From the NCBI GenBank assembly GCA_017511715.1, contig JAFWJF010000002.1, forward strand, positions 135,781 to 199,780: DNA of 64,000 nt, given 5' to 3'. The DNA comes from Alphaproteobacteria bacterium (GTDB taxonomy: Bacteria; Pseudomonadota; Alphaproteobacteria; Rs-D84). The position numbers and the translations under genes were made by a program. The number at the start of each line of letters is the position of its first letter. The first letter of the stretch is position 1. Of this stretch, positions 1 to 61,783 are shown piece after piece. The notes under the pieces are model-generated. The model worked only from the letters and a program-made list of their open reading frames with translations. It made no database searches and was not told the DNA's origin.

Positions 1-2081
1 GTTGATGGTGTATTGTTTGACAGATCTGCGTTTTCAGAAGGACGGCGACAATTTTGTAATGCATATCGCACAAGTTGTTGATAAAGACTGCCGATATAAT
101 ATTCCCCGCATGTGGCGCTTAAATTTTGATTTATTGGTTGTGGGGCAGATGTGCCACCTGAACATATTGCTTCACCTGGGCATACGCGACATTCTGTTGC
201 ACGATCTTTATTGTAGCAATAGCCGTTAGTTTCGTTGCAATTAGCGTATAAATAGTATCCGTATTTACAAGATGTATATATTTTTGTGTAATCTTTACAT
301 TGTGCCAAGTAATCTTGGAAAGATGTTTGTTGATTTTGGCTTTGTATAAGTATGTTGGTTTTAGAAAAAGGGTTAACCAGTGTTGAATTGCATGTGTCAA
401 CAAGTGCATAACGCGCTTCGCCGGGGGCATAGGCGCGGCAACCATACGGATAAGAGTGAGAAGAATCGTTCACAGGTGGTGCACAAAGATTTTGGACAAA
501 TGTGTTTAACAAGTCTGTACAAGATTGTTCGATGGTTGTTTTTGTAATCGTGCTCATTGTTGCGACCAAAATGTTTAAGCCTGTGTCCCCACCACCATAA
601 AGGTTGCTGCAGCTGTTCAGTTTGTCCGCGCACATCTCTTCTGATAATTCTAGCAGATGATTAAAATGGGTTTTAGAATCTGAACTAACGAGTTTTTTCA
701 GTTGTTCTGATTGATTAAGGTAGCATTCATTAACAACTTGCAAGCATTCGTTTTTTACACTTTGTACGCGTTTTTGCTGTTCTTGATATATTTCAACAAG
801 AGACTGTCGTAAAAATTCGTCCCACACATCATCTGCATTTTCTTGGCATAAATCAAGAGGCTGTTTTGCAAAATCGCGCTTTTTATTAAGTTGATTTATA
901 TAAACTGAATTTTGTTTGTTTTTAAGAGTGTCGCCAGATAAAGAAATTTGATTTTCTATTTGATAAAACTCTGGTGAATATATTGGTTCACCTGTAGTAA
1001 GATTTAAGTATTTACCAGAAAAATCTAGACAATGAACATAGCCTTCGCCACATGCTGTGTCTGCTGTTATTTCGTTCCTTACGTTTGCGATACAATCATT
1101 GATACTGGTTGAATTATGCGCATTGTAGTTTTCAAGTCGGGCATCATGCATTTTTTGACGGGTGTCACGTATGGCTGTGTTTGCGGCTGCTGTTTTGACT
1201 TTCAGATTCTCTGCAAGTACCGCACAATCGTTTTCAATATACATGCCATACGCAGAAGAAATCATTTTCATATCTGAATCTGTACAACTTTGTGAAACCA
1301 AGTCATAACATTGTGTGTGAACAGCGTTGTATAAATTTTCGCCGGTAAGGTTTGCTATGTTAGAACCGCCGATAAGATGAGTCGTGTTCCAAATGGATTT
1401 TATATCGCCGGCAATATCTAGTGTGCCTTGGGTCGACAAAGATTTAGATTTTGATTCGCTTAATACATTTGATATGTTTTTCAGAACGTTTGCACTAAGT
1501 GAAACATCGCGTTTCAGATTTGCTTCGCCTTCTGATTTGGTTATCATTGCATGAACTTCGTCAGAGGTTTTTGGTATCATGCTAATGTTTAATTCGTCAA
1601 AATTTTTCAAGCTGTCGGCTGTTTGTGCCAATGTTTGTTCTTGTTTTTGTACTGATTGTAATTTGGAAGAACACACACAACGGCGATATGTTTCATTTTG
1701 AGTGGCACAAAACTGATCCATACAGGTAAAATAAGCGTCGCGACAGGCATTGTAATTGTTCCCAAATGCTTTTGGTTGAACAGTTGCGGTTGCGCGCGAT
1801 ATAAGTGCGGGACGGGTTGCACTGCGTGAAGTTGTCGTTTGGGCAGAAGTGCGTCCTGTAACAGTTTTTGTCGATGTGCTTCTTGCTGTCGTTTTTCGGG
1901 CAGAATCAGAAATAACAGATACGCGTTGGGAATTTGTACGATTTTGTAGGGCGTTATTTCGTTGGTGCGATATGGCTTGACGCGAAGTTGTTGTGGGAGT
2001 GATGTTTTGTGTACGACTGGCAGCATTGACCGTGTCAATGCATAACAATAACCCAAAGAAAATGATATAAAATTTTCTCAT
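1..2081 (-). CDS. Cys-rich secreted protein, CMDxFC-signature family, paralog 1 (3' end truncated by window edge)
   Basis: Own minus-strand translation from ATG (rev-comp of cat 2079-2081): MRKFYIIFFGLLLCIDTVNA signal peptide, S/T/R-rich linker, then ...YNACRDAYFTCMDQFCATQNETYRRCVCSS... Frame stays open to position 1, so it is absent from the ORF track. Listed ORFs 131..445, 397..633 and 1607..2056 are out-of-frame overlaps. Shares the signature and several other blocks with 2563..4800 and 4820..7285. Confidence 0.6.
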   Translation of the reverse strand, partial: MRKFYIIFFGLLLCIDTVNAASRTQNITPTTTSRQAISHQRNNALQNRTNSQRVSVISDSARKTTARSTSTKTVTGRTSAQTTTSRSATRPALISRATATVQPKAFGNNYNACRDAYFTCMDQFCATQNETYRRCVCSSKLQSVQKQEQTLAQTADSLKNFDELNISMIPKTSDEVHAMITKSEGEANLKRDVSLSANVLKNISNVLSESKSKSLSTQGTLDIAGDIKSIWNTTHLIGGSNIANLTGENLYNAVHTQCYDLVSQSCTDSDMKMISSAYGMYIENDCAVLAENLKVKTAAANTAIRDTRQKMHDARLENYNAHNSTSINDCIANVRNEITADTACGEGYVHCLDFSGKYLNLTTGEPIYSPEFYQIENQISLSGDTLKNKQNSVYINQLNKKRDFAKQPLDLCQENADDVWDEFLRQSLVEIYQEQQKRVQSVKNECLQVVNECYLNQSEQLKKLVSSDSKTHFNHLLELSEEMCADKLNSCSNLYGGGDTGLNILVATMSTITKTTIEQSCTDLLNTFVQNLCAPPVNDSSHSYPYGCRAYAPGEARYALVDTCNSTLVNPFSKTNILIQSQNQQTSFQDYLAQCKDYTKIYTSCKYGYYLYANCNETNGYCYNKDRATECRVCPGEAICSGGTSAPQPINQNLSATCGEYYIGSLYQQLVRYALQNCRRPSENADLSNNTPS

Positions 2082-2183
2082 CCTTCACTTTTTAATAATA
2101 ATATCAAAAACAGCGTGTTTTAAGCAAGGGTATTTTGCAAAAAAAAGCAAATAAAAAATCTACAGAAGTAGATTTTGTTATTG

Positions 2184-2432
2184 TTAATTTGCAGAAGCGT
2201 CTGTTGAAGTGTGCGCGCGTTCAACAAAAGTTATGCGTCCCTTGTCTAAATCATAAGGGGTCATTTCAACATGTACTTTTTCGCCAACGTTAACCCAGAT
2301 TCTGGCTTTGCGCATTTTTCCGCAAACTGTCGCCAAAATCATGTGTCCGTTTTCAAGGCGAACACGAAACATTGTGTTTGGCAGTCTTTCTTCGACTGTA
2401 CCAGAAAAAACAATTACGTCATCTTTTGCCAT
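2184..2432 (-). CDS. infA: translation initiation factor IF-1
   Basis: Last 82 aa of ORF 2184..2756 read [69 protein letters not shown], the canonical IF-1 S1-like sequence. The upstream 108 aa of the listed ORF are unrelated, so the start is placed at the MAKDD ATG. Confidence 0.85.
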
Positions 2433-2562
2433 AAATAAAACCCTTGTTCGTTGTCTGAGTAATGATATTAAGCACAGAATAAAATTGCAAGAAGTTTTTA
2501 TATCCGCTTGCAAGGTTATGTTTTTTTTGATAAAATAATATAAAAATGTGGGAAGGTTTCTT

Positions 2563-4800
2563 ATGAAAATGATAAAGATTTTGCCGGTTTTATTGGTGTT
2601 TCCATTGGTTGTATATGGGGCTTCTCGTACGGATTCAACTGTTCGTGTTGGTGTTGGACGTAATAACCAAGCGGGCGCAAGGATGCCTGCTATTTCTGGG
2701 GCCGTTGTGCAGGCCGCGTTGGAAAAAATTTCTGTTTCAGGTGGGCAAAAGCCCAAGTCAGAAACAAGTTCTGCGACCGTGGTTGCATCTGTGCCTGTGG
2801 CGACAGCATCTTCTGATGCAACTGTTTCGGCACCGGTTGATGCAGAGACTGTATCAGTTGTGGCAAGTGGTGATTGCAGGGATGCTTATCGTGCGTGTAT
2901 GGACAGTTTTTGTTTGTTGGAAGAAAGCCAGGGTGAAAGATGTGCGTGTTCAGATAATATAGAATACGCAAAAGGTAAGATTAAGACAATTCTTGCCATC
3001 CAAGCAGAAGCAGATAAGTTGTATACAGAAGGTGTTGAACGCGAACAATTGGGTGCAAAAGCCCGTTTGGTGTTTGCAGATAATAATACAAGTACAAAGA
3101 TTTCAAGTGTCGATTTTATGGGGTGGTTGTACGGCGATAAAGAAGATGTTGAAGAAAGTGGTGATGTTGGCGAAGATGTTGAATTAGGGGACGATTTGTA
3201 TCAGATGGCGGTTAAATATTGTTCTGCTGAACTGGATTCTTGTGGAAGCAAGGCCGAAATGGAATCTATGTTGTATTCGCGCATGATAGTCCAAGATTGT
3301 AAGAATTATGATTCTTATTTGGCAGACCAAAAACTTAATGCGGAATCTAATAAGCGCACCGCAGAATCTGCGGTTCGTAAAGCGCGTCTTGAAATGTTGG
3401 ATACAACGAACAAATACAATCGTGGTGAATGTTTGTTGGCGTTTCGTTCTTGTGTTGCAGACAAAGGTGGATGTGGTACGAATTTCGAGAATTGCCTTGA
3501 TAAAAAATTGTTGCAACGTCGTTCAAATGCCTGTGAAAATGTGTTAGACCAATGTATGGCAGTGCGTGATTATGTTATTGAAGATTGGACGGCAGAATCA
3601 AAAAGTATCTTGGCAGAGGCTGAAAAATATGCCGACAAAAACGAACGTTTAACATGTCTGGCGCGTGCACAAAACTGTTTGGAAGAGGGGTGCTCTACAT
3701 CAACAAACGCGGAATGTTTGACCAATGTAAATGTTGCGGCTGGAATCTGTCCTGTAATCACAGAATGTGATGCAAAAATTCCTGGTTTTCAGGCTGTTAT
3801 AAATGATAAATTGGGATATTTACAGATTAAGTTTTGTGAAAATGACATAGATAAATGCTTGCAAGATAAATGTGGTGTTGATTTTACAAAGCCTGAATGT
3901 GTTGGTAAACGCCCGTATGAAATAGCAGCACTTTGTCCCCAGGATATGTTCTCGTCTTGTAAGAATGTCGAACAATACGATATAATTGTACAGGCGGCAC
4001 TTTTGCAGATGGATTATCAAATATTGCAAGGTTGTGTGAATTATTTTGGTGAACAGTTAGGCAAAGTTTGTGGGACAGATATGGCGTGTTTACCGATTGA
4101 TGCAACCGTTGAATCTTTGACAGATTTGCCGGATACAGAAGAGGGTTTGCAAAATTTGCGTAGAACAGTCGTTGCGAATTCTGACGCGGCGGTTGAAGAA
4201 TTCTTTGTTCAATTTGAACAGGATAAGACAGTTGCAGCATGTGCTGATATGCAAAGTGCAGAGGTCGCAAAGAAGAGTTCTGTGAAACTTAAAGATAAAG
4301 AACCTTTGGGGGTAAGTGTGTTTAATACTGCTAAATTGTTGGCAAAAATGGCAGCGGAAAATCGCAATTTGCGTGAACTTGATTCTAAGATAGCGGAAAT
4401 TGCACGCGAAAAAGATTTGGAAGAAGCCAAAAAGATTTGTTTAAGTACATATAAGCCAGAAAAACCAAAAGGTTCAACAGATGACGATTCAGACGAAGCG
4501 AAATCTAATTACAGTTATATACGCACCGTGTCGTTTGAACCTGATTTGCGTAACTGTCATGTTTGTCGCAGACAGCAAGTTTGTGAAGAAGGTGGCGAAT
4601 CTGCAGCGACATCTGCATTGAAAGCGGCGGCGGGTGGTTTGTCTGCCGGGGCGGCTTCTGGAACAATGGTCAGTGCTGGATGGGGAACTGCGATTGGTGG
4701 ACTGGTTGGCGGAATCGGTGGCGCAGTGATGGGCGCAATGTCTGGTGGTAAAAAACAGTTCTGTCAAGAAGTTGAATCTTGTGAAGATATAAATATGTAA
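2563..4800 (+). CDS. Cys-rich secreted protein, CMDxFC-signature family, paralog 2
   Basis: GGAAGG RBS 6 nt before ATG 2563 (the ORF-track start 2548 is a GTG). Signal peptide [24 protein letters not shown]-rich linker, then [27 protein letters not shown]. More than 50 Cys. Tail ...[16 protein letters not shown]... followed by the Gly-zipper segment [42 protein letters not shown]. Confidence 0.7.
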
Positions 4801-4819
4801 AGAAACAAAAGGGAAGAAA

Positions 4820-7285
4820 ATGAGAAAAATATTAGGTTTCGGTTTTTTTGCAAGTTTGTTGGTGGCCTTGGTTGGTGTGGTGGATGCCGGTGCCGCAACA
4901 AAAAATACTGTTGTGAAAAAGCAGGCTGCATTACAGGCCGGAACAAAAGTGCGCACCAGATTAGCACCAACTGGTATTTATGATGAGGCTTGTTATAACC
5001 AATATTTTGGTTGTATGGATCAGTTTTGTATCGTTGATAATGAAAATGGTGGTTCGTGTATGTGCAGTGATGATGCCGCAAAATATGACGAACAGTTGGA
5101 AGCAATAAAAAATACTTTGGTGGAAGCAGAACGTATCAGCACAGAAGAGGTTGAAAAGATTCAAGCGGGGGCCAATGCTGATATTATATTTAATGGCGGT
5201 GAACGTATTTATAACGAAGAGGGTAATGTTGTAAAAGTCGGGGAAAAACCGAAAACACAAGTCACACTTTCGTCGTTTTCGTTGTTTGACACAGAGGAAG
5301 AAGATGTTGACGAATGGGTTGATATTGATTTATCTGATAAGGTAGGAAGGTCTTTGTACAATGCTGCGCATCGTTTGTGTGTTGAACAAATGTCAGAATC
5401 TTGCGACAAAGATATGATGATGCTGACCCAGTTGTATTCTCGTCAAATTATTTCTGATTGCAAGGGTTTGGCAAATTCCATTGCGCAAAAGAAACAAGAA
5501 GCGGATAGTATTTTAGCGAAAGCAAAGGCGGCGGTGCGCGGTGCATTGAAAGAAAGTTTTGAAGAAGCCAATAAATATGATCGCGGAACATGCATGGTTG
5601 AATATAAAAAATGTATGCGCAGTGAAGATGCTTGTGGGGCAAATTGGGAAAATTGTGTCTTTACAATTGCCTCTGAAAACATGCAAAACAATGCTGCAGA
5701 AAGCGTTGCCGGAACAAAAGTTGATACGATTAACACATATGATATAACCGCATCGACAATGGAAATATTAGAATCTAAACGTTTTATCTGTGAAAAAGTT
5801 TTAGATAATTGTATGGCGGTTCGTAATTATGTTTGGAATGATTTCTTGCGTGAATCTGCGCCAACAATTCGTTTGGCAGAACAAAATATAGAATCACAAA
5901 AACGTCAATCGTGTTTAAGCGATATTTCAGATTGTATCCAAAAGGCATGTAAAGATGATATCGTTGGCAAAGGCGAAGCAACAATGGATGCATGTCTTGC
6001 CCGTCCAGATATGGCACGTTCGTTCTGCAAAATTCAAATTGATCCATGCGAAAGAATGGAACCTCAAATTTGGGATTATGTAAAATCTAAATTGGCGGCA
6101 ATGCGTGTTGATGTTTGCACCCAGGAAGTTAAAGATTGTATCACGGATGAAAACAGATGCGGCAAAGATTTTATGAATTGTATTGGTATGGATTTCAAAT
6201 ATATTCATGATATGTGCCCACTTGATAAATTAGTGGTCTGCAAACAGGCAAACCCAGATTTCCAAATGTCTGATTTAGATTCTATGTTAATGGGGCTTTA
6301 TTTGAATATTGATAACAAGGCACTTGAAAACTGTGAAAATCTGGCAGAAATGAAAATGGCGGAATTATGTGGGTCAACAACAGATTGTAATGTTTTTGCC
6401 GCAGATGAATATCTGGGGACAAATTCAATCAGGTCCCAAAAAGACGGCAGTATATATCGTGTGACAGGTATGATTTCATTTGGTTCAATAAAGATGGGTA
6501 ATGCCACAGGCAGTGTGAAAGATAACGGCAAAGTTTTGTTGCCTGGTGAAATTGGAGTCAAAGATTATATCAGGGAAGTTAAAAAGAATAATAGAAGTGT
6601 AGAAAATGCCGATGCGATAATATCTTCGATTGAAGAAGAATTGAATAATATCGAAGGAACAATTAACAGGGCAATATCTTTGATAGAATCAGATCAACAA
6701 ATACAATATTGTATCAATGGTCGTGATTTATCTCAAATCAATGGTCAAAAAGCGAGTGCAAGAAATACAACAACGGCAAGATTCCCGAATTTGTTAAACC
6801 AGTATCGTGTGATTATTGGTATGGCTGCATTACGCAAGGCGCAAGATAACTATAACAAAAAAGTAAATGAAGAAATAGCGGAAGCCGCCAGAAATTCTTC
6901 TGTAGATCTTGCACAATATTTGTGTCAGAGAATTGCGGATGCAGGTTCAACATCCAGTAGGGATAACAAAATTATTGATGAAACGCCGTTGACCCCACCA
7001 TATGCGATATCTTATGATGTCGGTTCGGGGCTTAGCACAAAAGATTTGATTGCAAATGGTGCTGGCACTTCGGTAAAGACATCCGGTGTTGGTGGTGGTG
7101 AAACGGGAACTAGTATAAGCACACTTGTTAATGCGTCATTTGACCGCGAAAAAAGAAATTGTCATATTTGCCGTACTATAACAGCGGAAGCGTGTTCGCG
7201 CAAAGGTGGCAGTTGGTTCCGTACACGTGATATTAATTGTAAAACTGATGTTCATGAACCAAATTGTGAAGATGTCAAGATGTAG
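4820..7285 (+). CDS. Cys-rich secreted protein, CMDxFC-signature family, paralog 3
   Basis: Starts 20 nt after the stop of paralog 2, so likely co-transcribed. Signal peptide, then CYNQYFGCMDQFCIVDNENGGSCMCSD. Shares blocks with paralog 2: LYSR.I..DCK, RG.C....C.....CG.N.ENC, CMAVR.YV. C-terminal motif ...KRNCHICRT... Confidence 0.7.
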   Translation: MRKILGFGFFASLLVALVGVVDAGAATKNTVVKKQAALQAGTKVRTRLAPTGIYDEACYNQYFGCMDQFCIVDNENGGSCMCSDDAAKYDEQLEAIKNTLVEAERISTEEVEKIQAGANADIIFNGGERIYNEEGNVVKVGEKPKTQVTLSSFSLFDTEEEDVDEWVDIDLSDKVGRSLYNAAHRLCVEQMSESCDKDMMMLTQLYSRQIISDCKGLANSIAQKKQEADSILAKAKAAVRGALKESFEEANKYDRGTCMVEYKKCMRSEDACGANWENCVFTIASENMQNNAAESVAGTKVDTINTYDITASTMEILESKRFICEKVLDNCMAVRNYVWNDFLRESAPTIRLAEQNIESQKRQSCLSDISDCIQKACKDDIVGKGEATMDACLARPDMARSFCKIQIDPCERMEPQIWDYVKSKLAAMRVDVCTQEVKDCITDENRCGKDFMNCIGMDFKYIHDMCPLDKLVVCKQANPDFQMSDLDSMLMGLYLNIDNKALENCENLAEMKMAELCGSTTDCNVFAADEYLGTNSIRSQKDGSIYRVTGMISFGSIKMGNATGSVKDNGKVLLPGEIGVKDYIREVKKNNRSVENADAIISSIEEELNNIEGTINRAISLIESDQQIQYCINGRDLSQINGQKASARNTTTARFPNLLNQYRVIIGMAALRKAQDNYNKKVNEEIAEAARNSSVDLAQYLCQRIADAGSTSSRDNKIIDETPLTPPYAISYDVGSGLSTKDLIANGAGTSVKTSGVGGGETGTSISTLVNASFDREKRNCHICRTITAEACSRKGGSWFRTRDINCKTDVHEPNCEDVKM

Positions 7286-10937: not shown

Positions 10938-11725
10938 ATGTTGGAAGTTTTCAATTGTGCAATAATTTGTTCTTGGGACGCTTTCATTGCATTATACATA
11001 TATCTGTAATAAGATTTTGAATCCCCGTTTGCCATATTAGAAATAGCTTTACGATAATGTTCTTTGTCGCTTTTGCGGTTGAACACAACAGGCCGATAAC
11101 CAAAATGCAACAAAGACAAATTCATAACCATTCGCGATGTACGTTTGTTATAATCGTCAAACGGATGCAACATAAGCAAATTATAGTGTAAATCAAAAGC
11201 GCGTAAAGGATATGGTTTTTTGCTGTTATGATAGTCATAAAGTAGATTTTCTAACAGTTGTGGGATCATAACAGGATCTGGGGTATGAATTCGTGCCCCG
11301 TTAACAGTTATTTCTAAGATTTTATCTGCATTTCTGTATCTGCCGGCAGAAACATTTGTGTCTTTGGCAATAAGGTAATGGATGTCGCATATGGTTGATG
11401 CCGTTATTATGGAATCGTTTTTGTGTGCCAATATATAATCATAAGCTTCGCCCAGGCCCCTGGTGCAACTGTAATCAAAATATGCAGATTGTTCTTTTGT
11501 TGGCATCCAAAATAAAACACGGGGTTCTGTATAAGAAATTTCATGACGCAACCAATTAAAATTATTTAATTTTTTTATGTTGGAACCAGATAACTTCCCA
11601 GAAATAATCTGTTTGTTGTGTTCAACAACTTCCTGAACGGACAGGTTTTTTGGCGAATATTTGTTTTCTGGTGTTTTTTTATTGTGTGTCATTTTTTTAT
11701 CCTTGTTTTTAATACTGTAGCACAA
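10931..11725 (-). CDS. Fic/DOC family protein (possible AMP/phosphocholine transferase)
   Basis: Fic core motif is present as the variant HPFDDYNKRTSR, versus canonical HPFx[DE]GNGRxxR. About 260 aa, mostly alpha-helical. Confidence 0.65.
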   Translation of the reverse strand: MCYSIKNKDKKMTHNKKTPENKYSPKNLSVQEVVEHNKQIISGKLSGSNIKKLNNFNWLRHEISYTEPRVLFWMPTKEQSAYFDYSCTRGLGEAYDYILAHKNDSIITASTICDIHYLIAKDTNVSAGRYRNADKILEITVNGARIHTPDPVMIPQLLENLLYDYHNSKKPYPLRAFDLHYNLLMLHPFDDYNKRTSRMVMNLSLLHFGYRPVVFNRKSDKEHYRKAISNMANGDSKSYYRYMYNAMKASQEQIIAQLKTSNIK

Positions 11726-11827
11726 ATAATCGTTTTGTCAATCATTGATAAAAAAGATAAAAAATCGTGTTGCACAAAGTTTTGTTTTTTATTATTCTGT
11801 GTCAAAGAAAGAGAAGGGGTGTTTTTT

Positions 11828-21839: not shown

Positions 21840-21942
21840 ATATGCGCATGTATTATATACATTTTATTTCTTTTTTCAAATAAATAATTTCTATTAAATT
21901 TGGGAATAAAATCAGAGTGTTTTATTAAATGTGTGTTTGACA

Positions 21943-21971
21943 ATAATGTGTTTATGCTTTAACATCCTTTG
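21943..21971 (+). promoter_or_regulatory. sigma70-type promoter (TTGACA-N17-TAACAT) for the autotransporter gene
   Basis: TTGACAataatgtgtttatgcttTAACAT, with an AAAGGAGAG RBS before ATG 21997. Confidence 0.5.
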
Positions 21972-21996
21972 TGAGATAAGCAAAGGAGAGCACATC

Positions 21997-35543: not shown

Positions 35544-35592
35544 AACAAAAAAACATTAGACAAATAAAAAACGCTTCCCTTTTTTTTGTTTT

Positions 35593-35603
35593 GTGATATA
35601 ATG
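35593..35603 (+). promoter_or_regulatory. extended -10 promoter element (TGaTATAAT) inside a motif shared with 39783..39791
   Basis: CTTTTTTTTGTTTTGTGATATAATGCACAAAGAGA. A near-identical block precedes gene 39806. Confidence 0.5.
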
Positions 35604-35633
35604 CACAAAGAGAAACATCAAAAGGTAGGGAAG

Positions 35634-44138: not shown

Positions 44139-44978
44139 TTAAGCAAAAGTTTTTGCGACCTTTTCAATTAATTCCCGGACGATATCGGCAGATTGCATAT
44201 CGCCATTTGGCGCATATTCAACAAACTCAAAATTTATTGCGTCACTAAACTCTTGGATAAAAGCGCGTGCAAATTCAACTGATAGCCCGTTTTGTTCCGG
44301 CACCCATACATCGCGGAAGTATTTCGGATCGATTCCATCAAAATCAAAAGATACAATAAATTTTTTTGTGCCGATGCGATTGCGAACTTCGTTAAATGCT
44401 TTGTCCCAATCGGCTTTTGTTTCAAGTTGTGCAGGTGTGCGGAAAAAGATATTGTTATCTTTGACATATTTCATTTCTGATGGTTCGCAAGAACGCGTGC
44501 CGAAAAAGAATATATTCTCAGGTTTTAACGCAGGTTTTTTGTGTTGTAATGACAGCCAACGCGAATCGCCTTCGCCCAAAAGATGTCGAACATTTGTTCC
44601 GTGTGGCGCGCCAGATGCTTCCCTTATAGATGATTCAGGGGTATGAATATCAAGGTGCGCATCAAAATAAACCAAACATAAATCTTCGTTTGGGTATTGG
44701 TCTGCAATACATGCAAAATGAGAAAAATTCACACTGTGGTCTCCACCAACAAAAATGTGTTTTTCGTGTGGGGTGTTATTATAAATTTTTTTATGAATAT
44801 TAAAAGCGTCACCAAATCTGTCGGTGATTGAATCAGGGTTAACATTATCTGGTGTGATAATTGTCCATGTTGCGTTTGGAAACATTTGTTGAATTGCGCG
44901 TGGTGCCAATGCCGGACCGCCGTTCAAAACCTTCGCGGTTGCGCCGCGACTGTATTCTATACCAAGGAATTTAATCAT
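44139..44978 (-). CDS. arginase-family hydrolase (agmatinase/formiminoglutamase-like)
   Basis: Ureohydrolase motifs FVGGDHS, VYFDAHLDIHTP and SFDFDGIDP. Confidence 0.75.
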   Translation of the reverse strand: MIKFLGIEYSRGATAKVLNGGPALAPRAIQQMFPNATWTIITPDNVNPDSITDRFGDAFNIHKKIYNNTPHEKHIFVGGDHSVNFSHFACIADQYPNEDLCLVYFDAHLDIHTPESSIREASGAPHGTNVRHLLGEGDSRWLSLQHKKPALKPENIFFFGTRSCEPSEMKYVKDNNIFFRTPAQLETKADWDKAFNEVRNRIGTKKFIVSFDFDGIDPKYFRDVWVPEQNGLSVEFARAFIQEFSDAINFEFVEYAPNGDMQSADIVRELIEKVAKTFA

Positions 44979-45876
44979 TATAACTCTCTATTACACTTTC
45001 TGCTGCATCTTGTATTTTTTGCAGACTTTTTTCGTAAGTTTCGCAATCGCGCGCAATCTCAGATTTATATGCATCGCGTAGATTTGATGCCATATAATAA
45101 CATGCACGCAGGTGCTGTGAACAATATTGATGACCGGTATTAAAGGCGTTTTGTCCGCGAACACGGCTTTCTGTATTTGCCCATTCGATATTTAGTGCAT
45201 TATCAATGTTTACCCATGGGTTATCGCCAGTTTGTACACCAACGGTTTGGTCCCAGTATTCTTTTATTTCTTCACTGGTTGCAGAAGATGAGTATTTCAA
45301 TCGAACAATCTTTTCGATTAATTCTTCTATTTTGTTTTTATACTTGGCATCAATTTGCGCCAGTTTTGCACTGCAATAGCAACGATTATAGGCGGTGTCT
45401 TCGCGTTTGCAATAATCTTCCATGCATTCTTTGTAATCTGCCATACACCGTTGGGAAGACGGACGTTCTGTTGCTGTGTAATAATTATTTGTTGTGGTGC
45501 GTGCCGTATTGACATTTCTGACACGTACAGGTGCAGTTGCTGCACGATAATTTATATTTGTGCCCGGTGTAAAAGGATTTGCCGCACGTGCTTTTGTATT
45601 TGTTCGTTGGACAACACGGCGTGGTTGTTGGGTCTGTGTATTTGGTGTTGTTTGTACCATTACGCCTGAACGAGGAACGACGGCGCGTCTGGCACTTGCT
45701 GTTGTGGCAGATATGTTCTTGGCGTTCGTATTCGTTTTAGTATTGTTTAACACATATGGATAAACATCATTGTGTGAAGTAATGGTGTTAAACTTTTTAG
45801 GAACATAACTATCAACAGCTGTTGCGCTTGTAGCAACCAAGACAGAAACCACGAAAAAGAAAAATCCTTTCTTCAT
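44971..45876 (-). CDS. Cys-rich secreted protein, CMDxFC-signature family, paralog 4
   Basis: Signal peptide MKKGFFFFVVSVLVATSATA, T/N/R-rich linker, then CMADYKECMEDYCKREDTAYNRCYCSA. Start 45876 chosen over 45957, which would overlap the upstream gene. Confidence 0.6.
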   Translation of the reverse strand: MKKGFFFFVVSVLVATSATAVDSYVPKKFNTITSHNDVYPYVLNNTKTNTNAKNISATTASARRAVVPRSGVMVQTTPNTQTQQPRRVVQRTNTKARAANPFTPGTNINYRAATAPVRVRNVNTARTTTNNYYTATERPSSQRCMADYKECMEDYCKREDTAYNRCYCSAKLAQIDAKYKNKIEELIEKIVRLKYSSSATSEEIKEYWDQTVGVQTGDNPWVNIDNALNIEWANTESRVRGQNAFNTGHQYCSQHLRACYYMASNLRDAYKSEIARDCETYEKSLQKIQDAAESVIESYND

Positions 45877-45920
45877 ATTTTGTATTCTAGTGTTTTTGAT
45901 ATAAATAAACAAGCACATTT

Positions 45921-46961
45921 TTATCTGTATAATGGTTCGGTTGGTCGAACATGGCAACCGTTTTTGCGTTTAAGTTCAATCGCGTTTTTATATCCGCGAC
46001 TGACAGCGCCTTTATAGCGTTGCTGTGCTACTTTTTGTAAAAAGGCATCACGTTCGTTTAACCAATCATTATGTATGTCGCCTTGATAATTATTTACAGC
46101 CCGTATCATTTCAGAATCGACAGATGATGTTTTCTTAGGAAGCCCTAGAAAAGTTCTAAATTGTTGTAATGCCGTGCCAGGACCACTGGCCATGCCGGCC
46201 AAGAATACATCTGTGGCAATAACGTCAGGTAAACGTTCGAAACCATAGGGTTTCCAGTATTTTTCATAATAGACAGTTTCTGCCTCTGCGCGTGAATTTA
46301 CCCGAACGCCTGCACATTGTTTTCCAGAACCGATGCCATAACAAGTATAACCGCAACGGTCGTTTTTTATTGTTCCACATGCGCCTTCTTTTCTGAATAT
46401 AGTAATCAAGCCTTTTTCCAGGGCAGGGTGTATTTTTTCATATTTTCCCGTGGTCAAAATTGTGTTTGTAAAATTATTGTCGCGTGCTGCAGGATAGCAC
46501 GAACCGCCGACTATAAAATTATTTTCAATCACATCGCCACCACCAATCGTTCTTCCAGAAAAGTGTGATGGTTGCTGTTGACCGGTTTGTGTTGGCGAAG
46601 GGAGTGTCGGGCCTGGTGTGGTTTGTGTGCCGGCTTGTGTGGTATGGCATATTTTTGTATCGTCAGGATATTTTGCACAGTAGGTATCGTGTGGCAGGTT
46701 TTGCCTGTCGCTTTCTTGTTGTTTCTGTTCTTGGTCCATTTGGTCAATGATACGGTCAGTGTAAACTTCTTCGCCTGGGACGATATTTAATTCTTGATAT
46801 GCCTTTTTATCAAGCAATGGTTTGTATCCTTCGCGTGCAATATCAATGCGTGCTTTGAAAGACATATCTTGAAAAGTTCCCGGAAACGATGCCACAGACA
46901 ATTTTCCCTGTGCGGGGCTGCACAGGACAAATAAACAAGCAAGATAAAAAATCTTTTTCAT
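45921..46961 (-). CDS. secreted GH108-family muramidase-like protein with peptidoglycan-binding C-terminal domain
   Basis: Signal peptide. FRKEGACGTIKNDRCGYTCYGI aligns to the GH108 catalytic block (L.HEGGYVNDP.DPGG.T.YGI). ...YYEKYWKPYGFERLPDVIATDVFLAGMASGPGTALQQFRTFLGL matches the PG_binding_3 region. Confidence 0.55.
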   Translation of the reverse strand: MKKIFYLACLFVLCSPAQGKLSVASFPGTFQDMSFKARIDIAREGYKPLLDKKAYQELNIVPGEEVYTDRIIDQMDQEQKQQESDRQNLPHDTYCAKYPDDTKICHTTQAGTQTTPGPTLPSPTQTGQQQPSHFSGRTIGGGDVIENNFIVGGSCYPAARDNNFTNTILTTGKYEKIHPALEKGLITIFRKEGACGTIKNDRCGYTCYGIGSGKQCAGVRVNSRAEAETVYYEKYWKPYGFERLPDVIATDVFLAGMASGPGTALQQFRTFLGLPKKTSSVDSEMIRAVNNYQGDIHNDWLNERDAFLQKVAQQRYKGAVSRGYKNAIELKRKNGCHVRPTEPLYR

Positions 46962-56527: not shown

Positions 56528-59488
56528 TTATTTTTTTTGTACTTTATTTCCATCACAGTAATAAGCATCGCTTTGCCATACGTTGTCTTCAACATTTTCA
56601 ATGAAATCGTTAACCTTTTCTAAAACGGTACAAGCATCCTTTTCTTCTTCGCTTAACGCTTCGTTATTGTTGGTGCCGTGTTTATAAGGATTGTCGGTAT
56701 TAAATTTTGGGGACAGTTTTTCAGACGCTGTTGCAAGGGGCATCCAACATTTTAAATATTCATCTGAGGACAATTTTGGGTCATATTTGAATAGCTCTAA
56801 ATGTGTTGGACTTATCACTTTTAGCTTCTCATTAATTTCATCTATGCATTCTCTTATTTCTGACTCAGATTTTTTTTTGCTATCCGTATCGGATGTTTGG
56901 ATGCCTTGCCCAGAAATGAGGTTTGTAAGAGCATCGGTTCCCACTGCATTAGACATCGTACTCAACACGTTGTTTTTTACATTATTTGTGTTTTTGTTCT
57001 TTGCGGCGTTCACACGGTCATTTGTTGCATCAAAAGCTTTGTTTAGGGCTTCTATTGCGTTGTCTTTTTCTTCATTTGTTGGGTTGTTTGACAATGTTAC
57101 ACCAATCATTTTACCTGCAACGACCGCACCGAAACTTTCAATCAATTTATTCAGCACCCTGTCGGTATCAACTGTATCTGCGAATAAATCTTGTGCCGTT
57201 TGATTTTTCGCCTTTTTCAAATCGTTTTTGCAGTTTATGTTTTTAACAGATAATGCGCTTGGTGGGAAAGAGCTGAATGTTAATTTATCTGTTTCTTGCA
57301 CACCGGCTTCTTGGAGGCATTTTTTCAATTTATCCAGTGCGTCTGTTTCCTCTTTTGCCGCTTCTTCTAACGCCTTGGTATCTTTTTTCTTTTTTATCAA
57401 TTCACCAAGTTTACCGTTGATAAGGGAATTACCAACCACACCGACAACAACTCCCGCACCGGCAGCGATAGCACCGCCCGTCACGCGTTTTTTAGATGTT
57501 GATGCCGCATCGTCAATTTTTGCTTGGTCGGCTTCTGATTGCAACATTTGGGCACGATAAAGCGATGCGTAGTTGCCATTAGTTATTCCGATGTTTTCTT
57601 CGTCATAAAGCCCACTGGTTGCCCTGTCATAAATAACTTCGCTTTCAATGCCTGGTTTCATACCAAGCGCATTTTTACGTTCTTTAAGGTCTTGGGCAAG
57701 GGCAAGATATTGTCCGCGTAAATTCATAAGTTCTTGGTCATTTGCGCCCGGTAATTCAATTTCTGTGGGGCCTGCCTTTACCTGTTTATCTTCGCCGTAT
57801 GTGCAACGCATTGTTTCAATATATGCCGCCATATCTGCCGCCGCTTCTTTATCAGCCGATTGTTCCGACAGACCTTGTGCCAGTTGCATGCCACCGATTC
57901 CAGTCGCAGCGGTGGTCAATGCAGTCAAAGTTTTATTTGCGGTTGATTGTTCTTTGGCCTTGGCATCTTCATATGCTTTTTGTTTTTCTTCTAAATCTTT
58001 TTGTCTTTGTTCGTCGGAGCGGTTATCGATTTTTTCACATTTGCCGTCTTTCAACTTGTAAAGTTTTTTATTACAGTCTGTGGCAATACATGTGTTTTTA
58101 GATACATCCCAATATCCATCGTCAGCATGCATTTCGTTTAATTCGGCAACTTTGCATCTTTTTTTCGTGCATTGACCGTTTACAACATCTTCTTCGGGTG
58201 TGGGACATTTTTTGTTTTTACATGCGGTTCCATCGGCGGTTATTTCATAGTCGTCCGATATACATTTTATTGCAATACAAACACCGTCTTCCAATTTATA
58301 GCCGTTTTTGCTTACATTATTTTTTATCATACGTTTTGCGTCTTTTTCACTGCATAGTGTTTGTTCGCATTTTGTTTTATCGGCATTTAATGTATAACCT
58401 TTGACCGTATCGCACGCAAATTCGCATTGTCCGTTAATCCATTTACTTTTGTTGGTTGCGTTGGCGGCACGTATTTGTTCATCGCTGCATCTGACCTGAA
58501 CACATTTTTGTTGAGATTCATCCCAATCGTCTTCTGGTTTTGTGCATTTGTCATGGACACATTTGTTTTTGTTATTCAAATGATAGCCGTTTACACAGCC
58601 TTTTGGGACACATTCTTTTCCGTTCCATTGTGGCTCTGTTCCTTTTGCGGTCTGTACTTCTTGAATTTCGTATTCTGAGCATCTGACTTTTGTACAACCT
58701 TTGCCGTCAATCCAGTCTTCTTCTAAGCTTTCACATTCGTCTTTGACGCAAACATCGTTATTTGTGTGATAACCTGTCACGCAATCCGTGGGAACACATT
58801 TCCCGTTTCGAACGGTAACTTTTTTTGCATGGTTGTTTGTTTTCAGGTCTGATTCTTCTGTCTTGGAACACTTAACTTTTTCACAGATAGAGTCAGATTT
58901 TTTGTATTCGCCTGGTTCACCGATGCAGGTATCAATAACACATCTACCGTTAACTACTTTTGTAGATTGGGCGTTTTTTAGACTGGCAATTTCAGCAGAA
59001 GTGCAATTAACCTTTACACAACTGTTGTTTTGTATTTCATATTCGCCCCGTTCGCCGATACAGGTATCTATGACACATTTTTCTTTTTCCCATTTTACAG
59101 TGGCTGCATTGTGGGTATTTATTAACTCGTTTTTTTGATTTTCTGTGCATTCGGTTGGTATAATAATAGGTTCGTCTAAAATACGACTATCATCTTCAAG
59201 TTTTATATTAAGATTTGCTTTGGCATCAACTTTTTGTGTTTTATAGCCCATGTAAGATATTTGTAGTTTTGTCGCATCGTCTGGAATCGAAAAGTTAAAT
59301 TCCCCGTTTTCGTTAGTTGCTTGACCTCTGTTTGGTATTGGGGTCCCATTGGCATCCAATGGTCGTACGCTTGCTCCTGCCAGTGGGCCTTCTTTGTCAG
59401 AAACCGTTCCGCTGACGTTCAGAGCAAACACAGGCATTATGGACAATGCAAAGAATAGGCCGGTAAAAATAATACTTATTTTTTTCAT
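56528..59488 (-). CDS. large secreted Cys-repeat protein (CarboxypepD_reg-like N-domain, tandem ~40-aa Cys modules, Gly-zipper/KE C-terminal region)
   Basis: Signal peptide. N-domain LNVSGTVSDKEGPLAGASVRPLDANGTPIPNRGQATNENGEFNFSIPDDATKLQISYMGYKTQKV. About 12 modules such as CVIDTCIGE(R/P)GEY....C.KVKC and CVP.(D/G)CV.GYH.NN..CV.D.C. C-terminal part carries GGAIAAGAGVVVGVVGNSLINGKLGELIKKKKD. Confidence 0.7.
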   Translation of the reverse strand: MKKISIIFTGLFFALSIMPVFALNVSGTVSDKEGPLAGASVRPLDANGTPIPNRGQATNENGEFNFSIPDDATKLQISYMGYKTQKVDAKANLNIKLEDDSRILDEPIIIPTECTENQKNELINTHNAATVKWEKEKCVIDTCIGERGEYEIQNNSCVKVNCTSAEIASLKNAQSTKVVNGRCVIDTCIGEPGEYKKSDSICEKVKCSKTEESDLKTNNHAKKVTVRNGKCVPTDCVTGYHTNNDVCVKDECESLEEDWIDGKGCTKVRCSEYEIQEVQTAKGTEPQWNGKECVPKGCVNGYHLNNKNKCVHDKCTKPEDDWDESQQKCVQVRCSDEQIRAANATNKSKWINGQCEFACDTVKGYTLNADKTKCEQTLCSEKDAKRMIKNNVSKNGYKLEDGVCIAIKCISDDYEITADGTACKNKKCPTPEEDVVNGQCTKKRCKVAELNEMHADDGYWDVSKNTCIATDCNKKLYKLKDGKCEKIDNRSDEQRQKDLEEKQKAYEDAKAKEQSTANKTLTALTTAATGIGGMQLAQGLSEQSADKEAAADMAAYIETMRCTYGEDKQVKAGPTEIELPGANDQELMNLRGQYLALAQDLKERKNALGMKPGIESEVIYDRATSGLYDEENIGITNGNYASLYRAQMLQSEADQAKIDDAASTSKKRVTGGAIAAGAGVVVGVVGNSLINGKLGELIKKKKDTKALEEAAKEETDALDKLKKCLQEAGVQETDKLTFSSFPPSALSVKNINCKNDLKKAKNQTAQDLFADTVDTDRVLNKLIESFGAVVAGKMIGVTLSNNPTNEEKDNAIEALNKAFDATNDRVNAAKNKNTNNVKNNVLSTMSNAVGTDALTNLISGQGIQTSDTDSKKKSESEIRECIDEINEKLKVISPTHLELFKYDPKLSSDEYLKCWMPLATASEKLSPKFNTDNPYKHGTNNNEALSEEEKDACTVLEKVNDFIENVEDNVWQSDAYYCDGNKVQKK

Positions 59489-59501: not shown

Positions 59502-60917
59502 TTATTTAGAAGCCCTTTGTTCGCTGCTTGAACCACTGCCAGACGATGTTGTTGAACTAGAAGAAGTTGCCGTTCTGGAACCATTGTCCGTTTTTTCGGC
59601 ATCTTTCTTGGCTTGTTTTTCTTGTTCTTTTGCGTCTTTTTTCGCTTGTTTGTCCGCTTTCTTTTGTGCTTTTTCTGCCTCTTTGGCTTCTTTCTTTTCT
59701 TGCTTTTCTTCTTCTTTTTTCAGTTTTTCTTCTTCTTTGACGGCTTTCTTGGCCTTTTGGGTGTCAAGTGCGCGGTCTATTGCCCCCGATGTGACCAGAC
59801 CAACCGCCGTACCAACACCAGAACCCAACATCGCAGATGATGCACCGGTTTGTGCGCGTGTTTCACGATATGCGTTTTCACGATATGTTGTGACATTTAT
59901 ACCAAACCATTCCTGCATACATACAAACGTGTCACCGGCATAGCGTTTGCGTGATGCCATTGGCGTTGATTGATCGTTGCCCGCAAAGAAATTAACAGTG
60001 AATACACAATCAAATGAACGTTCATCAAACATTGCACCCAATTTTCGACAATTTGACATCATCATATCACGCAATGCATACAAGCGTTCTTCATCTTTCT
60101 TTACTTCCTTTTCTGCGTTTTCGCGCAATTTGCCGATTGCAGTGCCAAAACGATTGGCAAGGCCTGAATCTGATTCTGTGCACTCTTTCGCAATTGTTGA
60201 ACATTTTTGTATTGCGGCATCTGCATATGTCTTGCCCAGGCACTTATTATATGTTGTCCCACATTCATTTATTATGCACGCATTGTATTGGTTGCCACAA
60301 TTTATCACTTTATCATATGACGATAAACGAACATTCATATCGCGGTCAGCCGTGATTTCAGTGGAAAACATGCGGAACTCTTCGGCGGTACATTCTGTGG
60401 CGCGCCGGCAGGCGTTTAATTTATCACCAAATATTGTTGCGCCATCCAATGCACATTCAGTGAAATCTTTGCCGCATTTTTCAATCATACATTTACGCAG
60501 GCCATTGTCACAGGTATTGGTGCTTGTTGCAAGGGCTTTTTCTTGGGCAGATTGGGCGGATGTGGTTGCTTCGTTTGCCGCCAATGCCGCACGTTGTTTC
60601 CGTATTTGTTCCGCAAATGAATTGTCTGTGTCAGCAGATTCAAGAACTGTTGATACCGCAACCTCAAATTCAGATGACTTGTTTATTATATTAGGTTTTG
60701 TTTCCAGTGCTTCTGATGTTTCTGATTTCGTTTCTGACGATGGTTCTGTCAGTGTTTCAGAAACCTGTTCAGTTTTTTGTGTCGGCACTGCGATTGAACG
60801 ACGCGTTGTCACCCCAGGCGCGTTGCGAACCGCAACACGAGTCGCCGCTTCTGCATCCAATGCGAACGCCATAATTATGGATAACATTGCAATAAAAAAT
60901 CTTTTGTCTTGTGCCAT
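59502..60917 (-). CDS. Cys-rich secreted protein, family paralog 6, with Gly-zipper segment and Lys/Glu-rich tail
   Basis: Signal peptide MAQDKRFFIAMLSIIMAFALDAEA, then CDNGLRKCMIEKCGKDFTEC. More than 25 Cys. C-terminal GASSAMLGSGVGTAVGLVTSGAIDRAL followed by a KE-repeat tail. ATG 60917 lies 2 nt after the stop of the upstream gene; the ORF-track start 60938 overlaps it. Confidence 0.6.
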   Translation of the reverse strand: MAQDKRFFIAMLSIIMAFALDAEAATRVAVRNAPGVTTRRSIAVPTQKTEQVSETLTEPSSETKSETSEALETKPNIINKSSEFEVAVSTVLESADTDNSFAEQIRKQRAALAANEATTSAQSAQEKALATSTNTCDNGLRKCMIEKCGKDFTECALDGATIFGDKLNACRRATECTAEEFRMFSTEITADRDMNVRLSSYDKVINCGNQYNACIINECGTTYNKCLGKTYADAAIQKCSTIAKECTESDSGLANRFGTAIGKLRENAEKEVKKDEERLYALRDMMMSNCRKLGAMFDERSFDCVFTVNFFAGNDQSTPMASRKRYAGDTFVCMQEWFGINVTTYRENAYRETRAQTGASSAMLGSGVGTAVGLVTSGAIDRALDTQKAKKAVKEEEKLKKEEEKQEKKEAKEAEKAQKKADKQAKKDAKEQEKQAKKDAEKTDNGSRTATSSSSTTSSGSGSSSEQRASK

Positions 60918-60919
60918 CT

Positions 60920-61783
60920 TTATTTCAACCTTTCGCATGCAGTGTCATAAAATTTACAAAGTTGTTCCGCAACTGTTTTTTCATAATCAAAACCGATATC
61001 GCATTTATTGCGCATGTTGTTTTTACAAACACGTGCGATGCAATCTTGTTTTGCCTTGCCCCCAGTGCAGGATGCCTGGGCTGTTGCCAATTTTTGTTCG
61101 CGTGTCTTTTTATATGAATTGATAATGTTTTGTAATAACTTGGTCGCGTTCGCAATTGATGTGTTGCGCGCCGATGTCAATGAAGAACGTATCTTGGTCA
61201 AAAATTCATCGCAGCCAACCGATAAAACACTGCATTCGGAAAAATATCTGTCAAATTCTGTGTCCGATTCGCATTTTCTGTAGTCTGCCGTGCAACGTTT
61301 TGCATCAACAATACAGGTCGTGATTTCAGAAGAACAAGAACTTTGAGACTTTTTTTCGTTCGCTTGTTGTGCCAAGTTTGTAAATTCTGTGGCAATTCCC
61401 GCCGCCGTACACGATTGTTCAATTAACTTATCATAATTATCTGTCACATCATCCGGGGTGCATCCAGAAACTTTCTTAAGACATTGTTCGGTCGCCCAAA
61501 CATATCGTGCACCAGGATCAGACGGTGCATTTTTCAATTCTTTATCAGATATTATATACTTTGTAGATGTACCAACAGATATGTTGCGCATTGTGGTCGA
61601 TTTAGTCGGCGTACCCGCAGATGCAGAACCGCAATATTGACAACGTGCCGCAGGATTTGCACCAATGTTTATGGCACACGCTGAATCAAGGCATCGTGTC
61701 AAATTAGCCACAGAACACGCACCATAAACCAATGTTGGCACGCACATCAAACACCCGAAAAAAATAAAATCGCGAATTTTCAT
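60920..61783 (-). CDS. Cys-rich secreted protein, family paralog 7
   Basis: Signal peptide MKIRDFIFFGCLMCVPTLVYGA, then CSVANLTRCLDSACAINIGANPAARCQYCGS, a signature variant. 30 Cys in 287 aa. First gene of a three-gene minus-strand operon. Confidence 0.6.
   Translation of the reverse strand: MKIRDFIFFGCLMCVPTLVYGACSVANLTRCLDSACAINIGANPAARCQYCGSASAGTPTKSTTMRNISVGTSTKYIISDKELKNAPSDPGARYVWATEQCLKKVSGCTPDDVTDNYDKLIEQSCTAAGIATEFTNLAQQANEKKSQSSCSSEITTCIVDAKRCTADYRKCESDTEFDRYFSECSVLSVGCDEFLTKIRSSLTSARNTSIANATKLLQNIINSYKKTREQKLATAQASCTGGKAKQDCIARVCKNNMRNKCDIGFDYEKTVAEQLCKFYDTACERLK

Follow-up and report, generated by a model that had tools for sequence, protein, structure and literature searches.

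What does the conserved, glycine-rich segment near the carboxy terminus of a large exported bacterial protein do, and on which side of a membrane do its two ends lie? The question is raised by a 64,000-nucleotide (nt) stretch of an Alphaproteobacteria bacterium of the order Rs-D84 (assembly GCA_017511715.1, contig JAFWJF010000002.1, positions 135,781 to 199,780 of the forward strand), which we call the window and whose own numbering is used below. Two adjacent genes in it, P2 and P3, encode paralogous Cys-rich proteins with a common carboxy-terminal module, and the segment lies inside the module of P2. An earlier note, made from the sequence alone, had read it as a single helix that anchors the exported domain in a membrane. 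We consider a different arrangement to be the better one, with a probability of roughly 60%: the segment would be a two-helix glycine-zipper hairpin, clasped at its base by disulfides and probably dipping into a membrane, and not a single-pass anchor. The genes concerned are as follows.

2563..4800, plus strand: P2, an exported Cys-rich protein of 745 amino acids (aa) counted from the ATG at 2563.
4820..7285, plus strand: P3, a paralogue of P2 of 821 aa, starting 20 nt downstream of P2.
From nt 2081 past the left edge of the window, minus strand: P1 (paralogue 1), 766 aa, its full length taken from the source contig.

P2, for which gene callers place the start at GTG 2548 (750 aa), consists of a signal peptide, a linker rich in A, S, T and V (aa 30-100), an all-helical Cys-rich body (aa 105-630) and the module (aa 650-745). 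Both P2 and P3 have Sec-type signal peptides (ending VVYG/ASRT and VVDA/GAAT, with no Cys in either) and a large exported Cys-rich body, as the earlier note had it. In local BLAST comparisons, P2 matched P3 with E 3e-52 (27% identity over the body), P1 with E 2e-11 and the open reading frame (ORF) 44971..45957 with E 6e-6; similarity to ORFs 59502..60938 and 60920..61783 was marginal, and none was detectable to ORF 56528..59488. The linker of P2 is poorly conserved among orthologues; it follows the signal peptide within aa 1-102 (2563-2870) as about 70 residues with a column conservation of 0.12 and a predicted local distance difference test score (pLDDT) below 45, and similar linkers are found in P1, 59502..60938 and 44971..45957.

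The module has the following parts.

4513..4602, plus strand: amino-terminal half of the P2 module, 30 aa, with strands beta1 (aa 650-659) and beta2 (aa 664-677).
Cysteines of this half, plus strand: Cys1 = C665 (nt 4555), Cys2 = C668 (nt 4564) and Cys3 = C674 (nt 4582), with the invariant G678 behind them.
4603..4749, plus strand: the glycine-zipper hairpin of P2, 48 residues between beta2 and beta3.
Parts of the hairpin, plus strand: helix 1 (about aa 682-703), a turn S/P-A/G-G-W (aa 704-707) and helix 2 (aa 708-729), which bears a GxxxG ladder.
4750..4797, plus strand: carboxy-terminal half of the P2 module, with strand beta3 (aa 731-744), Cys4 = C734 (nt 4762) and Cys5 = C740 (nt 4780).
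7136..7282, plus strand: the module of P3, without a zipper, consisting of SFDREKRNCHICRTITAEACSRKGGS, the loop WFRTRDIN and CKTDVHEPNCEDVKM at the carboxy terminus; its cysteines are aa 781, 784, 792, 807 and 816.

P2 and P3 are homologous in this module. The motif that first drew attention to it reads RNCHVCRR in P2 (nt 4549-4572, 82 aa before the stop, preceded by (D)L) and RNCHICRT in P3 (nt 7154-7177, 42 aa before the stop, preceded by (E)K); the earlier note had found both copies, and had placed them 1 and 7 nt away, at 4548-4571 and 7147-7170. When hhalign compared a profile of the carboxy-terminal 100 aa of P2 orthologues with one of the carboxy-terminal 70 aa of P3 orthologues, it aligned them with a probability of 92% and E 5e-7 over SF[ED]xxxRxCHxC..C..GG, and the module is retained in the orthologues of both proteins; thus, the likeness of the two motifs is beyond chance. 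The consensus, F-[DEN]-x3-R-x-C-[HRK]-[VI]-C-x(5-7)-C-x2-3-GG ... C-x(5-8)-C-E-D-[IV]-x-M-COOH, spans more of the sequence than RNCH[VI]CR and is less strict. All 240 of the P2 and P3 orthologues keep CxxC-x(3-8)-C, and the best-conserved hallmark is the end CED[IV]xM-COOH, found as CED[IV]N[MY] in 114/120 P2 orthologues and as C-x-D-x-x-[ML] in 119/120 P3 orthologues. The carboxy-terminal pattern is therefore conserved, but not every letter of RNCH[VI]CR: in P3 orthologues the N before the first Cys varies (I/T/N/V) and T is commoner than R after the second Cys, and in diverged P2 relatives the His may be H, R, K or E. What had been described as a charged tail of P2 is a 16-residue, Cys-containing strand that carries this hallmark end.

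For membership, we defined the clasp module as F-[DEN]-x3-R-x-C-x-x-C-x(5-7)-C ... C-x(5-11)-C-x-[DE]-[IVL]-x-[MFLY]-COOH, a pattern present in P2, in P3 and in 233 of the 240 orthologues. It is absent from P1, 44971..45957, 60920..61783, 59502..60938 and 56528..59488, none of which has the Cys module and the CEDIxM end, so that the module does not extend across the whole family as first supposed.

Both flanks of the hairpin are common to the two proteins, those of P3 being RNCHICRTITAEACSRKGGS and CKTDVHEPNCEDVKM; what differs is the loop between Cys3 and Cys4, of 59 residues in P2 and 14 in P3. Among orthologues this loop measures 59-60 aa in P2 and 12-20 aa in P3, and it ranges from 7 to 238 aa across the family (266 members). 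The beta2-beta3 loop of the clasp is thus an insertion hot spot, and the zipper is an insertion at this place in P2. A strict co-variation of the Cys2-Cys3 and Cys4-Cys5 spacings was considered and dropped, as the match is only partial (6/6 in P2, 8/8-9 in P3, 6/10-12 in another subgroup).

The glycine-rich string of P2 quoted by the earlier note is exact (nt 4603-4749 including flanks), and the zipper is genuine and strongly conserved, although it forms two helices with a P/A-G-W-G turn, not one. In 17 diverged relatives (27-57% identity), Gly is near-invariant at positions 696, 700, 708, 712, 716, 720 and 724 (15-17/17), and position 705 is Pro in 14/17, followed by (G)W-G. A GxxxG pattern recurring over two successive short helices, here with Pro705/Gly706/Trp707 between them, is a trait that P2 has in common with the Pfam glycine-zipper clan. 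Column conservation among P2 orthologues is 0.87-0.89 in the zipper and module, compared to a protein mean of 0.77 and to 0.12 in the low-complexity linker (aa 61-90). The Gly-rich coding region contains no tandem DNA repeat, and its origin as a slippage-prone repeat was rejected on this ground; together with the high column conservation, this indicates that the zipper is under positional selection, as for tight helix packing. Across about 45 zipper positions no charged residue occurs in over 100 P2 orthologues. The [PS][VA][AV]GW that opens helix 2 is also found in distant relatives, in which the corresponding helix is strongly hydrophobic, e.g., VPVVGWVVAAVIVVAAAFVAFG (Kyte-Doolittle 2.0-2.9).

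The AlphaFold2 model of P2, computed from an 83-sequence alignment, has a mean pLDDT of 76; aa 105-630 are all-helical with pLDDT mostly above 90. The module is modelled as three strands (650-659, 664-677 and 731-744; block pLDDT 79-92), of which the second and the third are adjacent and antiparallel, and residues 689-728 form an unconfident excursion between them. A further line of evidence comes from losses of cysteines in diverged representatives (27-57% identity; an exhaustive search gave 474 representatives at E<=1e-3). Cys2 (C668) and Cys5 (C740) are jointly absent in nine of them and Cys3 (C674) and Cys4 (C734) in five, and not one sequence among these representatives has lost a single member of either pair. 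On a rough neighbor-joining tree, the losses fall in about five (Cys2/Cys5) and about three (Cys3/Cys4) separate places among sequences with all cysteines. From these paired losses we infer two independent disulfides, C668-C740 and C674-C734, which would tie both ends of the hairpin together. The register fits: 668+740 = 674+734 = 1408, as antiparallel strands require, in independent agreement with the modelled sheet. The remaining cysteine of the clasp, Cys1, probably has its partner in the body.

4438..4440, plus strand: Cys626, in the last helix of the P2 body, invariant, as is C665, in the 83 aligned sequences; the putative third bond would run from here to Cys1.

Two other uses of the cysteines were rejected. 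A zinc ribbon or CxxC metal site is contradicted by the independent loss of the Cys2/Cys5 and Cys3/Cys4 pairs and by the variation of the His (H/R/K/E), and a thioredoxin-like redox CxxC by its location inside the beta-strand 664-677 of a three-stranded sheet and by the lack of a Pfam thioredoxin match.

The pairing of the strands, the joint losses of cysteines and the short loop by which P3 joins the same flanks (14 residues) place both ends of the P2 hairpin on the same, oxidising side, contrary to an anchor with its tail across the membrane. In our preferred reading, P2 and P3 would be all-helical, Cys-rich proteins that Sec exports to the envelope of a diderm with a reduced genome (Candidatus Enterousia, order Rs-D84), each closing with a small antiparallel beta-sheet of three strands, which disulfides (Cys1 to Cys626 of the body, Cys2 to Cys5 and Cys3 to Cys4) hold in place and which ends in the invariant C-E-D-[IV]-x-M carboxy terminus. 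Because the ends of the P2 hairpin would be stapled together in the oxidising periplasm, the zipper could only (i) enter a membrane partway from the periplasm, (ii) span it twice, or (iii) pack with copies of itself; it may thereby tether or oligomerise the large P2 domain. Membrane association or oligomerisation, as suggested in the earlier note, is a reasonable expectation for such an element. We infer that the hairpin is membrane-embedded, and the membrane that it would enter is likewise a matter of comparison: the inner membrane, with a two-transmembrane (2-TM) hairpin and both ends periplasmic, is favoured on account of the strongly hydrophobic helices, resembling stop-transfer segments, that distant relatives carry in this position. 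The alternative is the outer membrane, whose inner leaflet would take up the hairpin as in glycine-zipper lipoproteins of the SlyB type.

Several observations weigh against this reading. The two P2 helices have Kyte-Doolittle values of 1.39 and 0.92 compared to the usual transmembrane threshold of 1.6, and their summed free energies of insertion on the biological scale are about +4.2 and +6.5 kcal/mol. The AlphaFold2 model of the zipper is mostly coil with pLDDT below 50, and the turn lacks the positive charge that a cytoplasmic loop usually has. In Pfam, matches to glycine-zipper families, Bacteriocin_IIc, C19orf12 and P22 gp7 recur below threshold, and P2 stays under the gathering cutoffs (PF13488, 12.6-15.3 bits versus 25; PF13441, 10.6 versus 28.9); on the other side, the weak matches to the glycine-zipper clan, and the one of nine P2-type carboxy termini that passes a zipper threshold (P0262, PF13436, 27.5 versus 27.0), speak for the hairpin. 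As to the disulfides, the paired-loss events are phylogenetically not fully independent, and no Dsb oxidoreductase was found among the about 30 ORFs scanned in the 64-kb window.

The explanation that survives best beside the hairpin, although we regard it as unlikely, does without membrane insertion: the zipper would be a soluble periplasmic or surface loop for helix packing, within a homo-oligomer or in the docking of P3 or another partner, or else a flexible hinge. The sub-threshold hydropathy, the low pLDDT and the Pfam scores under the glycine-zipper thresholds would all be expected of such a loop, as would the absence from P2 of a lipid anchor for outer-membrane targeting. However, a positional conservation far above that of the linker (0.89 versus 0.12) and the roughly 45 positions kept free of charge speak against a soluble loop, the homologous helices of distant relatives are transmembrane-like (Kyte-Doolittle up to 2.9), and known proteins with a glycine-zipper motif are membrane-embedded (bioRxiv 10.64898/2025.12.22.696046).

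Less probable is an offensive device, in which P2 would be released or displayed and its hairpin would enter a partner's or host's membrane to act there as a pore or tether, like glycine-zipper toxins and bacteriocins. The weak Pfam similarities to Bacteriocin_IIc, the P22 gp7 ejection protein and C19orf12 point this way, as does the lifestyle, since Rs-D84 genomes are below 1 Mb and dependence on partner cells is presumed (PMC12306168); membrane damage by a glycine-zipper effector of the type VII secretion system (T7SS) is described in one report (PMC12955049). Conversely, Sec is the only secretion system linked to these genes, none of their neighbours resembles an immunity gene, and P2 is a core, syntenic and slowly evolving protein, which is atypical for toxins. 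A more speculative extension, to which we give long odds, is one in which P2 copies, joined through their zippers, form an alpha-helical ring or pore of the outer membrane or of a partner cell's membrane, the Cys-rich body, perhaps with P3, serving as a periplasmic or intercellular scaffold for host attachment or metabolite uptake.

The reading of the segment as a single-pass anchor had been extended to two other ORFs of the minus strand, 59502..60938 and 56528..59488, whose quoted segments are exact (aa 366-387 and aa 671-703, respectively).

59778..59843, minus strand: ASSAMLGSGVGTAVGLVTSGAI, the single small-residue segment of 59502..60938 (aa 366-387).
59592..59744, minus strand: the K/E-rich tail of 59502..60938 (aa 399-449), predicted to be a single long helix.
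57413..57478, minus strand: GGAIAAGAGVVVGVVGNSLING, a segment of 56528..59488 (aa 671-692; Kyte-Doolittle 1.83), conserved in orthologues and about 295 aa before the stop.
57869-57928, minus strand: a second small-residue segment of 56528..59488.

These segments do not repeat that of P2. With hhalign probabilities of 1.7-2.7% (1.7% for 59502..60938 compared to P2), the three small-residue segments were rejected as one homologous module, and 56528..59488, with no detectable similarity to P2 or P3, has 295 aa between its segment and the stop and is no example of a segment near the carboxy terminus. In 59502..60938, which has no Cys module and no CEDIxM end, G372, G376 and G380 show no variation among 74 orthologues; the segment has a Kyte-Doolittle value of 1.42 and is not modelled confidently by AlphaFold2. 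The tail behind it is hypervariable in orthologues (17-284 aa; K/E-rich, S/T-rich or Cys-rich). Its number of Cys is 0 in 39 sequences, 2 in 27, 4 in 6, 6 in 11, 8 in 5, 9 in 2, 10 in 4, 12 in 3 and 14 in 1, i.e., even in 57 of the 59 Cys-bearing tails. This suggests tails that are disulfide-bonded and extracytoplasmic, a poor fit with an N-out/C-in anchor. ORF 56528..59488 begins with a CarboxypepD_reg-like domain and has a conserved block (aa 490-700) with the two small-residue segments, followed by about 295 residues with Cys; the block may be a 2-TM unit of its own.

The two segments of this block (57413-58020, minus strand) flank a domain of about 130 aa (MRCTYG..KQVKAGP.EIELPG.N) without a Pfam match. 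ORFs 60920..61783, 59502..60938 and 56528..59488 are syntenic in at least 20 Enterousia/Rs-D84 genomes, and in one lineage the gene of 59502..60938 is joined to the aa 490-700 block of 56528..59488 (fusion P0492, 23 member sequences). A sharing of Cys repeats between the tails of 59502..60938 orthologues and the amino-terminal part of 56528..59488 was rejected, as BLAST gave no match at E<=1e-3 and only P0492 links the two.

A single-pass anchor calls for one helix of about 19 or more residues with a Kyte-Doolittle value of at least 1.6, and for flanks on opposite sides of the membrane. Only 56528..59488 reaches this hydropathy (1.83), the best window of P2 (1.39) and that of 59502..60938 (1.42) falling below it, and the flanks of P2, given the losses of Cys pairs, the AlphaFold2 pairing and their counterparts in P3, are not on opposite sides. 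A C-proximal glycine-zipper helix crossing the inner membrane with N-out/C-in topology and a charged cytoplasmic tail, in P2 and likewise in the two ORFs, is thus highly improbable: the amino-terminal signal peptides with a late hydrophobic stretch, the KK directly after the P2 stretch and the KKKK after aa 672-690 of 56528..59488 (Kyte-Doolittle 1.83) speak for it, but in P2 the stretch is 48 aa long and interrupted halfway by a conserved Pro-Gly-Trp turn, its flanks pair as antiparallel strands, lose Cys only as cross-flank pairs and recur in P3 with no hydrophobic stretch, and its tail is acidic with two conserved Cys, while the even Cys numbers behind the segment of 59502..60938 and the 6-7 Cys behind that of 56528..59488 look extracytoplasmic.

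P1 contains one stretch that resembles the module.

147..200, minus strand: ATECRVCPGEAICSGGTS, an internal look-alike in P1 (aa 628-645 of 766), followed by about 120 more residues and lacking the CEDIxM end.

Judged from its sequence, it is probably not the same module as the clasp of P2 and P3, and the P1 stretch ECRVCPGEAICSGGTS was rejected as a clasp module, as it is not kept in the diverged orthologue from L030. The P2-P3 tandem is also present in that diverged genome. The order P1 (minus strand), infA, P2, P3 is kept in this Alphaproteobacteria metagenome-assembled genome (MAG; GCA_009784235.1, L030:3332-12904, compared to window 1-7285). Its P2-like protein is 41% identical, and its P3-like protein (906 aa) has retained the clasp module, which is preceded by an additional hydrophobic region rich in A, G and T. 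The short family member 44971-45957 (minus strand, about 300 aa) has a long T/N/R-rich linker before its signature; without the carboxy-terminal module, it retains only the amino-terminal signature of P1, P2 and P3, C-x3-Y-x2-C-M-[DE]-x-[FY]-C...C-x-C.

Scans of five ORFs against Pfam and NCBIfam and a PDB sequence search assigned no family to P2 or P3, and a Foldseek search of the PDB gave a best E of 0.8, i.e., no fold match. All homologues are annotated "hypothetical protein" and come from MAGs of uncultured gut and rumen Alphaproteobacteria, several of them named Candidatus Enterousia; one NCBI MAG encodes a protein with 100% identity to P3 (locus tag IKF41_01320). Members of Rs-D84 are fermentative and, with genomes below 1 Mb, lack most biosynthesis (PMC12306168). 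The window includes genes of an autotransporter, OmpA-family proteins, LptB/LptC and a Cu/Zn superoxide dismutase, so the cell is a diderm with a periplasm. The autotransporter (21931-25914, plus strand; 1327 aa, with Chlamydia polymorphic-membrane-protein repeats and a carboxy-terminal beta-barrel) is large for a genome of less than 1 Mb, and the dismutase (49481-50005, plus strand) is periplasmic, though the lineage is described as strictly fermentative and without respiration. Cys-rich exported proteins are unusually frequent in the window: two further signal-peptide proteins without a Pfam match, at 35586-36452 and 39806-40588 (both plus strand), have 13 and 7 Cys, and the former has repeated C..G.Y.P-like units. 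About 4 kb downstream of P2 and P3 lies a Peptidase_S41 tail-specific protease with PDZ domains (11618-13315). The end [IV]-x-[MFLY]-COOH of P2 and P3 (4783-4797 and 7268-7282) is of the hydrophobic-x-hydrophobic type bound by PDZ domains; the proximity of the protease may be a coincidence, as the end might serve only for packing, as the final strand.

Despite their reduced genomes, Rs-D84 bacteria, Candidatus Enterousia among them, retain three or more large Cys-rich exported paralogues (P1, P2 and P3) along with smaller, weakly related ORFs. A stapled hairpin on the periplasmic side of P2, beside the zipper-less clasp of P3, would provide this family with a concrete predicted topology and specific candidate disulfides, and points to P2 as the membrane-engaging partner in the conserved P2-P3 pair. 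The use of a glycine zipper as a loop insertion kept shut by two putative disulfides is unusual. The value of these results lies chiefly in the annotation of the lineage; they have no bearing on a long-standing general question.

Among known systems, PEP-CTERM, GlyGly-CTERM, MYXO-CTERM and LPXTG proteins combine, as does P2, a signal peptide, a short motif, a hydrophobic stretch and a short tail. Unlike in these sorting signals, the tail of P2 is acidic and Cys-bearing rather than basic, and the hydrophobic part has two helices and is absent from P3, though the motif and the end are kept there; a sorting signal for exosortase, rhombosortase or sortase was rejected, as no NCBIfam model matched at E<=1 and the 16-residue tail is net acidic. 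Class IIc bacteriocins and the T7SS LXG-T2 toxin likewise use GxxxG ladders for helix packing within the membrane, in line with the sub-threshold Bacteriocin_IIc matches, and the amino terminus of VacA is a glycine-zipper membrane-damaging element. These are small secreted peptides or polymorphic toxin tips with immunity genes, whereas the P2 hairpin belongs to a large, conserved, syntenic core protein. OmcA and OmcB of chlamydiae, Cys-rich envelope proteins cross-linked by disulfides, may offer a parallel in that several large Cys-rich, Sec-exported paralogues occur in a small-genome, partner-dependent diderm, but P2 and P3 showed no sequence or fold similarity to any entry of the PDB or Pfam.

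The closest comparison is to the glycine-zipper clan of outer-membrane lipoproteins (SlyB, YfgH, OsmB, YiaD and the Rickettsia 17-kDa antigen; PF05433, PF13488, PF13436 and PF13441). Like these, P2 is a Sec-exported envelope protein of Proteobacteria with two short Gly/Ala/Ser-rich helices and repeated GxxxG over about 40-45 aa, too weakly hydrophobic for arrest in the Sec translocon; the 2-TM glycine-zipper lipoproteins SlyB, YfgH and OsmB cross the inner membrane and reside in the outer membrane (bioRxiv 10.64898/2025.12.22.696046). Unlike SlyB and YfgH, P2 has no lipobox or amino-terminal lipid anchor, and its hairpin stands at the extreme carboxy terminus, in a loop of a disulfide-stapled beta-sheet on a novel helical Cys-rich body of 550 residues. 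By its sequence, the P2 element would act like a glycine-zipper two-helix membrane hairpin, and yet it falls outside the SlyB-type lipoprotein family, because of the missing lipobox, the sub-threshold score and the different context. It is this context that is new: in a helical Cys-rich family without a sequence match in PDB, Pfam or NCBIfam, a zipper hairpin sits in, and would be held closed by, a carboxy-terminal beta clasp with putative disulfide staples.

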